Positions 1,607 through 14,647 of a DNA stretch of 20,336 bases are shown in pieces. Position numbers and translations under genes: made by a program. Origin of the DNA: a virus (Duplodnaviria; Heunggongvirae; Uroviricota; Caudoviricetes); IMG/VR virus record IMGVR_UViG_2617271085_000008, positions 1 to 20,336 of that record; one strand, given 5' to 3'. The notes under the pieces were generated by a model that was not told the DNA's origin, searched no databases, and was given only the letters and a program-made list of their open reading frames with translations. Each line of letters starts with the position of its first letter. Position 1 is the first letter of the stretch.

Positions 1607-1682
1607 TGGTGGCCCTTGCTGGATTTGAACCAGCGACCTGGCGATTATGAGTCGCTCGCTCTCACCACTGAGCTAAAGGGCC
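1607..1682 (-). tRNA. tRNA with CAU anticodon; Ile2 (lysidine-type, ileX/ileZ-like) or Met
   Basis: 76-nt cloverleaf GGCCCTTTAGCTCAGTGGTGAGAGCGAGCGACTCATAATCGCCAGGTCGCTGGTTCAAATCCAGCAAGGGCCACCA; closely resembles E. coli ileX-type tRNA as recalled from memory; anticodon loop CTCATAA. Confidence 0.8.
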
Positions 1683-11803: not shown

Positions 11804-11994
11804 GGATGCACCTCCGCCGTAGTTACGTATTTAACCGGGCTACCTTTCATTGAGATGGTTTCACACATCTCTGCCGCTTTCAGTTCCGCTGTTTTTCTGG
11901 ATTTATAGCGACGGTGCCAGACAGATACATCCGTGCGAACTGATACATCGTTTCTGTATTCCGTAGTGGAGATGATGATTTCGTAACTAATCAT
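11800..11994 (-). CDS. Hypothetical phage protein (64 aa)
   Basis: 4-bp overlaps with both neighbours. Confidence 0.5.
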   Translation of the reverse strand: MISYEIIISTTEYRNDVSVRTDVSVWHRRYKSRKTAELKAAEMCETISMKGSPVKYVTTAEVHP

Positions 11995-12542
11995 GGGCGA
12001 ACCTCCTTGTCAGAACCATTCAGCCTGGAATCAACAAGTGCAGCGCCAAAAACAGCATCACCAACACGGTCGTACAGTTTGCTAGCCAGCGGAGATTCAA
12101 CGGCCTTAAGCATTGGATAAAGCTGGCTTGTCCAGATTTGATGGATTTCACGCAAATGCAGGTATACGCCTCTGGCGTTTCGTGCGACAGCTGACATATC
12201 AACCGCGTCAGCACCAGATAAATTCTTCTCCATCTGGTTAAAGGCGTTGATGTATGCCTCTTTGAACCGGGCTGCACGTTTGCCAGTAAAGCCCATAGCA
12301 AGGAACGCGAAGCCATCGCGGGTGATTTGATAGCAAGGTAGTTTGCGGCCTGTGCAATCGGTGTAATCACTGGGCTGAAAATTCAGCTCAGTGAATTCAA
12401 CAGAGCACTCAAGCGTCTGGATTTTTTGAATAACGTTTTTGTGCTGCTTGCAGAAATATTCGGCAACGGCCAAAGAAGAGGTAACAGCCTTCCCATGGAT
12501 AACATCAATTTTAGGGTGAGTTTGGGTAGGGGTGGTTGCCAT
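11991..12542 (-). CDS. Rha/antirepressor-like regulatory protein; start reassigned to internal ATG
   Basis: Track ORF runs to 12839, but ATG at 12542 has Shine-Dalgarno GAGGATG and is followed at once by the Rha-like segment KIDVIHGKAVTSSLAVAEYFCKQHKNVIQKIQTL; the upstream 99 codons are low-complexity and coincide with a motif-rich regulatory region. Confidence 0.6.
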   Translation of the reverse strand: MATTPTQTHPKIDVIHGKAVTSSLAVAEYFCKQHKNVIQKIQTLECSVEFTELNFQPSDYTDCTGRKLPCYQITRDGFAFLAMGFTGKRAARFKEAYINAFNQMEKNLSGADAVDMSAVARNARGVYLHLREIHQIWTSQLYPMLKAVESPLASKLYDRVGDAVFGAALVDSRLNGSDKEVRP

Positions 12543-12923
12543 AGTGACATCCTCATGTGCGAATTTTGAAAACTCACCACATGGGACGCCAATCACAGAG
12601 GTGGTGAGACGTACAGGGTTGGCGTAACCGGTCGCACATGACCCCGGCGCATCTTTCGATGCCCCTGCACGCCCCACCATAATTTGGATGTGAGGAAACG
12701 TGCGCAAAAAAACCGCTGAAGCGCGGTTATGCGCATGTGCGAATTTCAGGACGCCAATCCCGGCACCCGCTTTATAAGGTGCGGAGACAGTGTAACGTCC
12801 CGAAATTGCAGAATCAATATTTGGTCTTGGAATGATCATATAGCTGCTGATATCTTTAGAACTGTTCTTGGATGTTTCGGAGCCGTTTTATGCGAAACAG
12901 CTCCCCGTTATTGATGTTGAGTG

Positions 12924-12948
12924 AGCCGGGTTACTCCCGGCTTTTTTT
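12924..12948 (+). terminator. Plus-strand intrinsic terminator (orphan with respect to annotated plus-strand genes)
   Basis: AGCCGGG-TTACT-CCCGGCT hairpin followed by six to seven T; on the minus strand the hairpin is followed by CACTCAAC, so it is unidirectional. Confidence 0.5.
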
Positions 12949-13655
12949 CACCGCTGCCAACCAATAACCTGAAATAACCCCATTTTCGGGTGATACCAGC
13001 GAGTCCCTCGCGGTTCTGCTTCCTCCATAACCCGATAAAAAGCAGCCATAAACGGTTCCACAGCAACAATTGCGCGACGTGACAACAATCCGTCCGGCGT
13101 CATGAACTCATGTGTGTCTGTAGGAATTTGATAGGCGTTCACCAGATTGCGGCATTTATCATCTGACAAACCGGTTTTTGCTTTCAGTTGGCGATATCCG
13201 GCATAGCCCTCACGAATAGTGCCCTTTTTAATTTGCTCGACTGTTTCAGCAACGTGGCTGACTTTTTCTTCCACCTGAGTGATCCGTTTCTGCTGACGAA
13301 CTGCTTCAAGAGCCATCGCGGCAACCATTTCGATTTCGCTCATTGGCTTACGGATCTGTTCTTCCAGTTCGCGCCAGCGATCTACCAGGCGAGCAGTGAA
13401 TTCAGGACAGAGCTGTGCGACGACAATGATGCTGTCGCGCTTACCTTGTTCTCCTTCAAACAGGTAATGCTCATATTGAACTTTAAAACCTAAGTTATTG
13501 ATTCTTTCGGAAACCTCAATTTGAGGAGACCGGACAACGCCACCTTTGGCTAATGTTTCAATAGTGCGTTTCACATTGTCATGACGTTTACCCACCAGCT
13601 CTGCGATCTCAACGCTGGTCATGGATGCTTTGCCGTTAAAAATTGCGGTGTTCAT
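12948..13655 (-). CDS. Phage regulatory protein, Rha family (antirepressor-like)
   Basis: 235-aa ORF; N-terminal MTSVEIAELVGKRHDNVKRTIETL matches the Rha-family signature. Confidence 0.8.
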   Translation of the reverse strand: MNTAIFNGKASMTSVEIAELVGKRHDNVKRTIETLAKGGVVRSPQIEVSERINNLGFKVQYEHYLFEGEQGKRDSIIVVAQLCPEFTARLVDRWRELEEQIRKPMSEIEMVAAMALEAVRQQKRITQVEEKVSHVAETVEQIKKGTIREGYAGYRQLKAKTGLSDDKCRNLVNAYQIPTDTHEFMTPDGLLSRRAIVAVEPFMAAFYRVMEEAEPRGTRWYHPKMGLFQVIGWQR

Positions 13656-13889: not shown

Positions 13890-13970
13890 CACACCAGATA
13901 CTTTGTTATCCAACGATGTTAACCACAGGAATCCAAAGTATCAAGAAATTCTGTTACTTTAGTATCAACA
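13890..13970. promoter_or_regulatory. Divergent promoter/operator region (OR-like) with repeated GTATCA-core motifs
   Basis: AGATACTTTG (13896-13905, inverted), CCAAAGTATCAAG (13933-13945) and TTTAGTATCAAC (13958-13969) between the divergent CI-like and Cro-position genes. Confidence 0.4.
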
Positions 13971-13990
13971 GCCATGAGAGGAGAAGAAAA

Positions 13991-14647
13991 ATGAAGTCTT
14001 TAGGTGAACGTCTCATCAACGCACGGCAAAAAGCTGGGTTAACACAAGATGCGTTGGCTAAAAAAGCTGGGATCACCAGAGTTGCAATCAGTAAAGCCGA
14101 GCAAGGCCTTACAAAAAGTTTCAACGGTGACACCCTTTTTAAAGTTGCAGCTGCACTGCGGTGTTCACCGCAGTGGCTTCAGAACGGAGATGAAAAAGAT
14201 AAGCATTGGGAAAATAATGTTAAGAGCTGCCCACAGAGAGACACAGCACACTCTTACCCTGTAATTAACTGGGTTCAGGCAGGATTATTCGCAACTTCTG
14301 GTGATGACTACAACATGTATGATCAGGATAATTGGAGGCATTCTGTAAAATACGCTGGTGAGAGGGGGTTCTGGCTGGAAGTGCACGGAGACTCAATGAC
14401 TTCGCCCGTAGGAATAACATTTCCTGAAGGAATGTCGATCCTTGTCAACCCAGATAAAGAAGTTTTTTCAGGGTGTTACGTCATCGCCAGAAAAAAATCC
14501 ACCAATGAAGCAACATTCAAAAAATATATTTCTGACATGGGAAAGGCGTTTCTAAAGCCCCTTAATCCACAATATCCAATCATAGAAATGGACAATGATT
14601 GCGAAATAGTAGGTGTTGTGGTTGATGCCAGGTGGGATATTTTCTGA
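13991..14647 (+). CDS. CI-like prophage repressor (HTH_XRE + S24 LexA-like peptidase)
   Basis: Start at ATG 13991 with AGAGGAGAAG Shine-Dalgarno (track ORF starts at 13916); N-terminal HTH GLTQDALAKKAGITRVAISKAEQG; C-terminal GDSM catalytic Ser motif with downstream Lys. Confidence 0.85.
   Translation: MKSLGERLINARQKAGLTQDALAKKAGITRVAISKAEQGLTKSFNGDTLFKVAAALRCSPQWLQNGDEKDKHWENNVKSCPQRDTAHSYPVINWVQAGLFATSGDDYNMYDQDNWRHSVKYAGERGFWLEVHGDSMTSPVGITFPEGMSILVNPDKEVFSGCYVIARKKSTNEATFKKYISDMGKAFLKPLNPQYPIIEMDNDCEIVGVVVDARWDIF

Follow-up and report, generated by a model that had tools for sequence, protein, structure and literature searches.

The closest described relatives of the element reported here are the immI region of phages P1 and P7, with its C4 RNA, and the isrK region of prophage Gifsy-1. 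In P1, Citron and Schuster are said to have found in 1990 that C4 is cut from a leader transcript by RNase P and that its b′ loop occludes a ribosome-binding site (RBS). We analyzed a 20,336-nucleotide (nt) stretch of a Caudoviricetes sequence (IMG/VR record IMGVR_UViG_2617271085_000008, positions 1 to 20,336), called the window throughout, and describe a module on its minus strand that very probably belongs to the same type. In the published account of C4, RNase P processing takes place at a GGW motif, b′ occludes the RBS and a′ provides specificity (PMC5320573, PMC8198154). The rule that RNase P uses GGU/GGW together with a CCA-like 3′ determinant is given in PMC5320573, citing Hartmann 1995. 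In Gifsy-1, the long transcript is translationally silent by default, and the short, terminated IsrK RNA, which carries the same target sequences, relieves the block (PMC4825925).

The minus-strand segment 12817-12543 is, with high probability, a self-contained riboregulatory cassette of the P1 c4/Gifsy-1 isrK type, located before an antirepressor-like gene of the Rha family. Family membership, structure, complementarity, covariation, promoter homology and promoter and terminator signals were all observed in the sequence. The Rfam models for isrK and C4 both matched above their gathering scores (Table 1). The c4-a1b1 model (RF03163) reached 23.9 bits on the window, below its gathering score of 46.7, and the Rfam search of the window gave no match to isrJ. 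The C4 region folds with a minimum free energy of -46.5 kcal/mol (z score -5.1), and 0 of 200 shuffled sequences were equally stable. Transcription from the module promoter is predicted to start near 12782, and in the alignment this promoter coincides in every column with the annotated -35 and -10 elements of P1c4 (formerly P51b) of phage P1. P51b is an experimentally defined promoter, and positions T26, A50, A52 and T54 of the promoter alignment are invariant in 20/20 loci. The element adds one more member, previously unannotated, to the known C4/IsrK family; it has a loop specificity of its own and a Rha-family gene as cargo, and is nothing new in kind.

The initial annotation of the region had listed repeated motifs, direct and inverted repeats and a terminator, and all of these sequence features are present. 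The 9-mer CATGTGCGA occurs exactly three times in the 20-kb window, always within the region, at 12554-12562 and 12734-12742 on the plus strand and at 12632-12640 on the minus strand. This compares with 0.40 expected copies, and three copies were reached in 0 of 100 shuffles. The exact 9-mer is confined to the sites b1, b′ (as complement) and b2. A longer direct repeat, ATCCTCATGTGCGAATTT (12549-12566), matches 12729-12746 at 89%, and GGACGCCAATC is an exact 11-nt direct repeat (12584-12594 and 12749-12759) with the inverted partner GGGTTGGCGT at 12616-12625. Of the motif copies proposed earlier, three held up, while the fourth (12577-12584, CCACATGG) proved to be just a 6-nt partial match. 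We rejected this segment as a C4 target copy; it is part of a predicted hairpin of the 5′ untranslated region (5′UTR) that pairs with the segment containing b2 and the Shine-Dalgarno (SD) sequence.

For comparison, 19 further phage and prophage loci were collected, among them Gifsy-1, SfV, ST64B, SW-37, cdtI, phiP27, phiV10, ZX5, a P2-like Citrobacter phage, a Yersinia phage, several Shiga toxin (Stx) phages and an Escherichia coli O145 prophage; P1 was fetched separately. C4 followed by SD and ATG was found in all 19 fetched loci, and isrK lay about 25 nt upstream of C4 in 18 of them. P1 has C4 and a c4-a1b1 match above threshold, with isrK below threshold (35.1 bits), and its record (NC_005856) annotates the same order of P1c4/P51b promoter, a1, b1, c4, a2, b2 and icd. 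The module was aligned for 20 sequences, leaving out SW-37, which has C4 only and no isrK match. Across these 20 loci the 17-bp closing stem and both hairpins of C4 were 100% paired with compensatory changes. Compensatory changes also affected the pairings between loops and targets, namely 6/7 pairs of a1-a′, 8/9 of b1-b′, 5/5 of a′-a2 and 8/10 of b′-b2. Standard pairs filled 93% of the cells, compared with 38-43% and 30-46% in the two pairing tests when the partners were slid by 1-3 columns. For every measure of loop-target covariation, the observed value was reached by 0 of 500 shuffles.

The comparison set contained 17 distinct b′ loops and 8 distinct a′ loops. Exact-match scoring of the loop-target complementarity was too crude, and duplex energies and column-wise pair counts were used instead. 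The b′-b2 duplex had a mean energy of -16.3 kcal/mol for cognate partners and -9.4 kcal/mol for non-cognate ones. G.U pairs were tolerated on the minus strand (for example UA:7 and UG:6 at columns 110/240). Since these frequent G.U pairs would be A.C mismatches on the other strand, the minus strand is the functional one. We take the loop and target sequences to act as an "immunity specificity" that differs between phages. Mosaic (recombination) joints were seen at ~12759, ~12819 and ~12919, flanking the functional units. Phage ASU11 is 98.8% identical over 12759-13100, yet has another C4 specificity, Lys8385Vzw is 99.1% identical over 12400-12820 with a different upstream gene, and the similarity of E. 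coli 88-3493 to the window begins only at 12919. At these joints the block of loop and target sequences is swapped between phages as one unit.

The gene behind the module differs from phage to phage. It encodes a Rha protein here, the ORF6N protein AnrP in Gifsy-1, a Bro-N protein in phiV10, an ORF6N+P22_AR_C protein in phages 1717 and phi315, and Icd in P1. No Icd or Ant1/2 was found as cargo in the window, where the downstream gene encodes a 183-amino-acid (aa) Phage_pRha protein. Since the cargo varies, the RNA module can be regarded as a portable controller of antirepressor-type genes, and icd-ant control therefore defines P1 immI and not the C4 RNA family.

By analogy with the described systems, a mode of action can be proposed. 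The sigma-70 promoter, constitutive in appearance, would start transcription near 12782. Most transcripts would stop at the terminator at 12728-12706 and yield an IsrK-like RNA of about 77 nt that displays a1 and b1. Transcripts reading through would contain the C4-like RNA, which RNase P may excise at GGU 12678, as in P1. In C4, the loops b′ (UCAUGUGCGA) and a′ (ACGCCAA) are complementary to b2 and a2, and because b2 overlaps the SD of ATG 12542, this pairing should block ribosome binding. The free 5′UTR is predicted to fold with the SD sequestered as well; such a fold was predicted in most loci, with a probability of the SD being paired of 0.42-1.0 in the 19 loci with a located SD. As in P1 and P4, pairing could in addition make the transcript liable to end prematurely, ahead of the downstream small open reading frames (ORFs) and replication genes. 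The cassette lies between PR-cro-roi and the replication genes, and translational repression could therefore impose polarity on the latter, as P4 CI does. Release from repression would follow the Gifsy-1 example, with translation switched on by titration of C4 or by remodelling of the long transcript. As the IsrK-like leader carries the same a1 and b1 sequences as the targets, it could do either.

A further pairing was seen in the 5′UTR. In the C4 closing stem, the 3′ strand CUCACCAC (12608-12601) has GUGGUGAG (12580-12573) as an alternative partner, and this pairing places a2 in a loop. This alternative helix is 95.6% paired in the 20 loci, with compensatory changes in 4/8 pairs, and competes with the SD-sequestering hairpin. 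The helix spanning 12573-12608 suggests a conformational switch.

Some observations weigh against a simple C4-type repression cassette. The Gifsy-1 model includes translational coupling from orf45, a small ORF inside the C4 region (PMC4825925). In the window, the equivalent AUG at 12680, at the 5′ end of C4, is in frame with the cargo gene with no intervening stop, and a longer protein of 229 aa may start there. The cargo protein is unrelated to AnrP (BLASTP E 3.8) and to Icd/Ant, and its putative antirepressor function is suggested by domain family and position. The direction of regulation may follow either precedent: C4 represses in P1, and the Gifsy-1 model stresses activation by IsrK, an RNA whose traits include Hfq binding and trans-activation of translation.

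The plus-strand terminator noted in the initial annotation is real and one-directional, with no U-tract following the hairpin on the minus strand. The proposed tie between this terminator and the motifs was not borne out. It is located upstream of the module promoter, with about 380 nt between it and the regulated RBS, and goes with the 3′ end of the Roi/Rha-like gene, separate from the C4 module. The spacer between the rha stop and the C4-module promoter was surveyed in 80 IMG/VR loci and in E. coli loci. This gave 19 distinct spacers in three sequence types, the most distant of which share about 69% identity. Terminator and an A7-8 run after the stop codon were kept in all 19, the run being non-coding yet invariant. 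The phiP27 type has a different hairpin with the same orientation and a U-rich tail at the same place. Across the mosaic joint at ~12919 the terminator stays with the rha 3′ end, even where a BRO-N gene is next (E. coli 88-3493, phiP27). Some Roi/Rha homologues (type E) are without it entirely, and distant homologues in phage D6, Klebsiella P12620-1 and Stx2_499 sit in different contexts and are uninformative on the generality of the reverse terminator.

For the terminator itself, the odds are even that it has no RNA gene of its own and is an insulator or a relic at the Roi/Rha 3′ end, where it would stop stray antisense transcription into rha-cro-PR. Its travelling with the rha 3′ end across mosaic joints speaks for this explanation, as do the type E homologues that do without it. 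However, the promoter-like element, the conserved 10-mer and the hairpin with maintained structure, all within the ~100 nt toward the C4-module promoter, are left unexplained. These features fit a second explanation, which we put forward tentatively. The orphan terminator may mark an undescribed prophage small RNA (sRNA) gene, either oop-like or trans-acting, with the 5′ motif GUUCUUGGAU. The RNA of about 86 nt (~12863-12948) would start from a promoter at 12827-12856. This promoter would stand back-to-back with that of the C4 module and diverge from it, while its transcription would converge with that of the Roi/Rha gene. Such an RNA could work in trans by way of the 5′ motif, or in cis on read-through PR transcripts, in a position like that of lambda oop. 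An insulator or relic is at least as likely as such an sRNA.

The candidate sRNA gains from conservation. The promoter-like element (TTGAAA-18-TGnTAT(C/T)TT across the three spacer types), terminator, T-run and 10-nt motif are kept although spacer identity is down to about 69%. In hairpin B the sequence differs while the structure is maintained, and the spacers of the three types fold with z scores of -3.3 to -4.7. The invariant non-coding A7-8 run points in the same direction, as does the phiP27 type, with a plus-sense hairpin at the same place and a promoter-like element about 50 nt upstream of that hairpin. Other results argue against it. In the terminator region, an Rfam search in E-value mode returned no family match, only a sub-threshold match to sroD driven by the hairpin. 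Literature on the terminator sequence and on sRNAs of enterohaemorrhagic E. coli (Esr41, Pas sRNAs) gave no match, and the Pas paper does not mention the locus. The window alone has TTGGAA as -35 where the 18 other spacer variants have TTGAAA, a single substitution that weakens the hexamer. By our own reading of the alignment, the strand-diagnostic G.U substitutions in hairpins A and B are divided, with 3 favouring the minus and 2 the plus strand. RNAalifold gave no convincing consensus for 12 spacer variants, a poorly aligned set in which MAFFT misaligned hairpin B. The complement of the conserved motif GTTCTTGGAT is not enriched in the window (7 matches, 7.3 expected), and the conservation of the promoter-like element could instead reflect upstream elements of the C4-module promoter.

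The candidate plus-strand RNA would lie wholly within the spacer between the Roi/Rha stop and the module promoter. It would therefore be antisense to neither of the Rha-like coding sequences. The spacer is carried by at least 214 complete E. coli genomes, and the candidate is the sole potentially new item at this locus; if real, it would be a regulator in Eru7-type lambdoid/Stx prophages, placed after the early regulators and before the replication genes. In the phiP27 type (L022 1440-1560, L014 30-200), a plus-sense promoter-like element, TTGATT-18-TGaTATTGT, lies between the Roi/Rha stop and the BRO-N gene. Its predicted start is at the GTG start codon of BRO-N, and a plus-sense terminator follows about 50 nt on. 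These elements would give an RNA of about 70 nt antisense to the BRO-N RBS, in a layout like that of P22 sar.

The C4 cassette overlaps an ORF of 282 aa that is annotated by the Prokaryotic Genome Annotation Pipeline (PGAP) with a start at 12839, upstream of the module promoter. It is improbable that this ORF is real and that a genuine "Ash" domain is fused to the Rha domain, although several observations would agree with it. The Pfam family Phage_ASH (PF10554) matches aa 16-110 with 53.8 bits (cut-off 26). Upstream of ATG 12542, 11/20 loci keep the frame open over more than 300 nt and a twelfth over 264 nt, and one of the indels that separate the loci has a length of 3 nt. In addition, translation has been reported for orf45 of Gifsy-1, which lies within the C4 region (PMC4825925). 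In nucleotide terms, the Phage_ASH match extends over 12794-12510, taking in the promoter -10, the complete RNA module and some 11 codons at the start of the Rha-family gene. A coding ORF would have to hold its own conserved promoter, a terminator with a U7 tract and two Rfam RNAs. In the twelve open-frame loci the variable columns were spread evenly over the codon positions (51/53/46 of 80 each) with no third-position excess, unlike coding sequence, and the mean pairwise difference was 0.313/0.301/0.283. The variation tracks RNA complementarity, and the frame is closed in 8/20 loci, P1 and Gifsy-1 included.

The initial annotation had placed the start of the second Rha-like gene at ATG 12542, and this is upheld by the arrangement b2-SD-N7-9-ATG, which is kept in most of the 20 aligned loci. 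The 282-aa ORF is most likely an over-extension of a gene predicted to start at 12542. From these comparisons we conclude that "Ash" is here, in all probability, the translation of a non-coding RNA. The Phage_ASH family may be largely spurious.

Antisense control in the manner of P22 sar, that is, a plus-strand cis-antisense RNA that crosses the motifs, ends at 12948 and regulates the Rha-like genes, is very unlikely. The P22 ant gene is controlled by an opposite-strand RNA, and this precedent counts in favour of the idea, as does the strong plus-strand terminator at 12923-12948. No plus-strand promoter-like site scoring at least 8/12 was found in 12400-12654, however. The sole candidates in the motif region (12654/12656-12683) use the conserved 5′ end of C4 as -10, and their -35 is located in a covarying hairpin. 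Between the terminator and the regulated RBS there are about 380 nt, and the terminator is placed upstream of the promoter of the module. Covariation and G.U tolerance put the functional RNAs on the minus strand, and the C4 architecture fully explains the motifs. Of the earlier suggestion of antisense control, the part that stands is control of an antirepressor-type gene at the RNA level; the regulator is not on the plus strand but on the minus strand, where it would be co-transcribed with its target. The appropriate precedents are P1/P7 c4, Gifsy-1 isrK and, according to PMC4825925, P4 CI, and not P22 sar. The motifs had also been suggested to be an operator array. Such an array, bound by a protein like Rha, Cro or CI, is hardly credible, although short direct and inverted repeats adjoining regulatory genes might lend it some credit. 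The motifs are RNA pairing sites that covary as reverse-complement partners of two structured-RNA loops. From phage to phage their sequences change completely, with complementarity kept through 17 b′ variants and G.U tolerated, whereas DNA operators of one protein family would conserve sequence and not complementarity. The sites moreover lie inside the transcript, downstream of the promoter.

The module is common. A 701-nt query centred on it matched 1188 of 5426 complete E. coli genomes by megablast, many Stx prophages included, mostly over the isrK/C4 part. In nine annotated loci that we inspected, it is listed as "ash family protein" or as an over-long "Rha family phage regulatory protein", and in none as non-coding RNA. 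As late as 2022, a survey of the replication regions of Stx phages described the "Ash domain" as a protein domain with no known function (PMC8951638). If the region is read as a riboswitch-like cassette of the IsrK/C4 kind, the Rha-family gene receives a corrected start codon. This reading further suggests an RNA-based, phage-specific layer of immunity between PR and the replication genes of these prophages, which would be relevant to induction and Shiga-toxin release. The Stx2a phage Stx2_499 (L107 1411-2102) carries an insertion of IS629 some 300 nt from the start of the annotated Ash/Rha ORF, a position in the RNA module or directly behind it. This insertion would uncouple the cargo and replication genes from the module.

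The prophage that carries the window is lambdoid, and the region is 99.9% identical to E. coli AR_0013 and 99.3% identical to phage PhiR49_2. The module is positioned in the early-right operon, between PR-cro-roi and the replication genes. Following the Roi/Rha gene, the minus strand carries the C4/IsrK region, the Rha-family gene, whose end is at 11991, then three small ORFs and finally the replication genes. The latter comprise a gene in the place where related phages have an annotated replication protein O, together with genes for a DnaC-like ATP-binding protein and a DnaB-type replicative helicase. This gene order agrees with the "Rha, then Rha/Ash" layout of Eru-type Stx phages (PMC8951638). 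Homologues of the upstream Roi/Rha-like protein carry the annotation Roi. In the P1-like phage D6 (L105 456-1387), a 76%-identical homologue of this protein is annotated "anti-repressor Ant" and directly follows icd, so that both Rha-like genes of the window encode protein types found elsewhere after icd or a C4 module. Elsewhere in the window, two tandem copies of the sRNA STnc100 (132 and 138 bits) lie at 602-790 and 1066-1259 on the minus strand, adjoining two tRNA genes (1526-1599 and 1610-1682, minus strand). STnc100 is treated as a relative of the PasD prophage sRNAs (bioRxiv 10.64898/2026.05.13.724894). The coordinates of the features of the locus are collected in Table 1.

Table 1. Features of the C4/IsrK locus and its neighbours in the window, with the evidence or remark for each
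Feature	Position	Strand	Evidence or remark
Sigma-70 promoter of the module	12789-12817	-	-35 TTGATT (12817-12812), 17-nt spacer, -10 TACACT (12794-12789); found in the 8/12 scan
IsrK-like leader sRNA	12706-12782	-	Rfam RF01394 isrK, 62.3 bits (gathering score 50), model 1-77 of 77
Leader hairpin 1	12782-12763	-	6/6 pairs with compensatory changes, 100% paired
a1 site TTGGCGT (RNA UUGGCGU)	12757-12751	-	Loop of leader hairpin 2
b1 site TCGCACATG (RNA UCGCACAUG)	12742-12734	-	In the leader
Leader intrinsic terminator AACCGCGC-TTCA-GCGGTT+U7	12728-12706 (hairpin 12728-12711)	-	Terminator prediction
C4-type antisense RNA	12597-12684	-	Rfam RF01695, 75.1 bits (gathering score 45), E 2.4e-13, model 1-87 of 87
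Predicted RNase P site GGU in C4	12678-12676	-	Sequence motif
b′ loop UCAUGUGCGA	12641-12632	-	C4, loop of second hairpin
a′ ACGCCAA	12625-12619	-	C4, single-stranded after second hairpin
CCACC near C4 3′ end	within 12606-12600	-	Invariant in 20/20 loci
Regulated 5′UTR	12543-12596	-	Complementarity to a′/b′ and covariation
a2 site TTGGCGT	12592-12586	-	7-nt pairing with a′
b2 site UCGCACAUGA	12562-12553	-	10-nt pairing with b′; overlaps SD
SD GAGGA of ATG 12542	12554-12550	-	Overlapped by b2
Predicted SD-sequestering hairpin, includes CCAUGUGG (12584-12577)	5′UTR	-	Folding
Cargo gene, 183-aa Rha-family (Phage_pRha) protein, ATG 12542	11991-12542	-	Pfam PF09669, E 9.7e-33
Intrinsic terminator GAGCCGGG-TTACT-CCCGGCT+T7	12923-12948	+	Abuts TGA stop (12950-12948) of Roi/Rha gene
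Candidate plus-strand promoter	12827-12856	+	Promoter scan; -35 TTGGAA (12827-12832), 18-nt spacer, extended -10 TGaTATCTT (12848-12856)
Conserved 10-nt motif GTTCTTGGAT	12864-12873	+	Just after predicted start; kept in all variants
Hairpin B	12879-12904	+	Structure kept, sequence changes
Candidate sRNA gene upstream of terminator	12827-12904	+	With terminator, would give ~86-nt RNA (~12863-12948)
Upstream Roi/Rha-like gene, 235 aa	12948-13655	-	Pfam Phage_pRha, E 5e-10; 3′ end bears plus-strand terminator
Small ORF in Cro position	13879-13652	-	
CI-like repressor, helix-turn-helix and S24 peptidase domains	13916-14647	+	

Compared with known systems, the locus would share with P22 sar the control of an antirepressor gene by RNA pairing at the RBS. 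The arrangement differs, as sar is an opposite-strand cis-antisense transcript over the ant RBS, a type with its promoter in or near the 5′ end of the antirepressor gene and a terminator within ~70 nt. Here, regulator and target have one strand in common, and short loops provide the pairing. Moreover, no opposite-strand pair of promoter and terminator brackets the RBS in the window, the sole plus-strand terminator being that at 12923-12948. With the P4 CI RNA and its seqA/seqC, the comparison was made at the level of logic, which is the same. This small RNA arises by processing of the leader of its own target operon, and it pairs with repeated sites upstream and downstream (PMC4825925); in both cases replication genes follow downstream. 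The documented outcome in P4 is transcription termination and not RBS occlusion. It is after P4 that Pfam names the spurious "Ash" translation.

The immI region of P1/P7 shows the same elements in the order of the P1 annotation, a1-b1, c4 with a′ and b′, a2-b2 and RBS. The promoter aligns with P51b, the C4 fold, the GGU motif and CCACC are kept, and b2 abuts the SD. Loop and target sequences are phage-specific, which is the basis of P1/P7 heteroimmunity. In contrast to P1, the window has neither icd nor Ant1/2, and no C1 operator is expected. Its leader is a full isrK with a strong terminator (62 bits, compared with 35 bits in P1), and it resides in a lambdoid prophage where P1 is a plasmid prophage.

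The isrK-orf45/STnc1160-anrP locus of Gifsy-1 (PMC4825925) differs from the window in several respects. The cargo here is a Rha-domain protein with no similarity to the ORF6N protein AnrP. The orf45 equivalent is fused in frame to the cargo gene, whereas orf45 of Gifsy-1 ends at the cargo start codon, and the second orf45 AUG of Gifsy-1 is absent. The window is without isrJ downstream, its upstream gene is Roi/Rha and not antQ, its module lies in the early-right operon before the replication genes and not in the nin/Q region, and the b′ specificity is different. The order on one strand is nevertheless the same in both, with a promoter, IsrK and its terminator, a C4-like RNA, a pairing site with the SD and an antirepressor-type gene. 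Both loci match both Rfam families with the same spacing of about 25 nt, both have a conserved AUG at the 5′ end of the C4 region, and the two can be aligned along the whole module.

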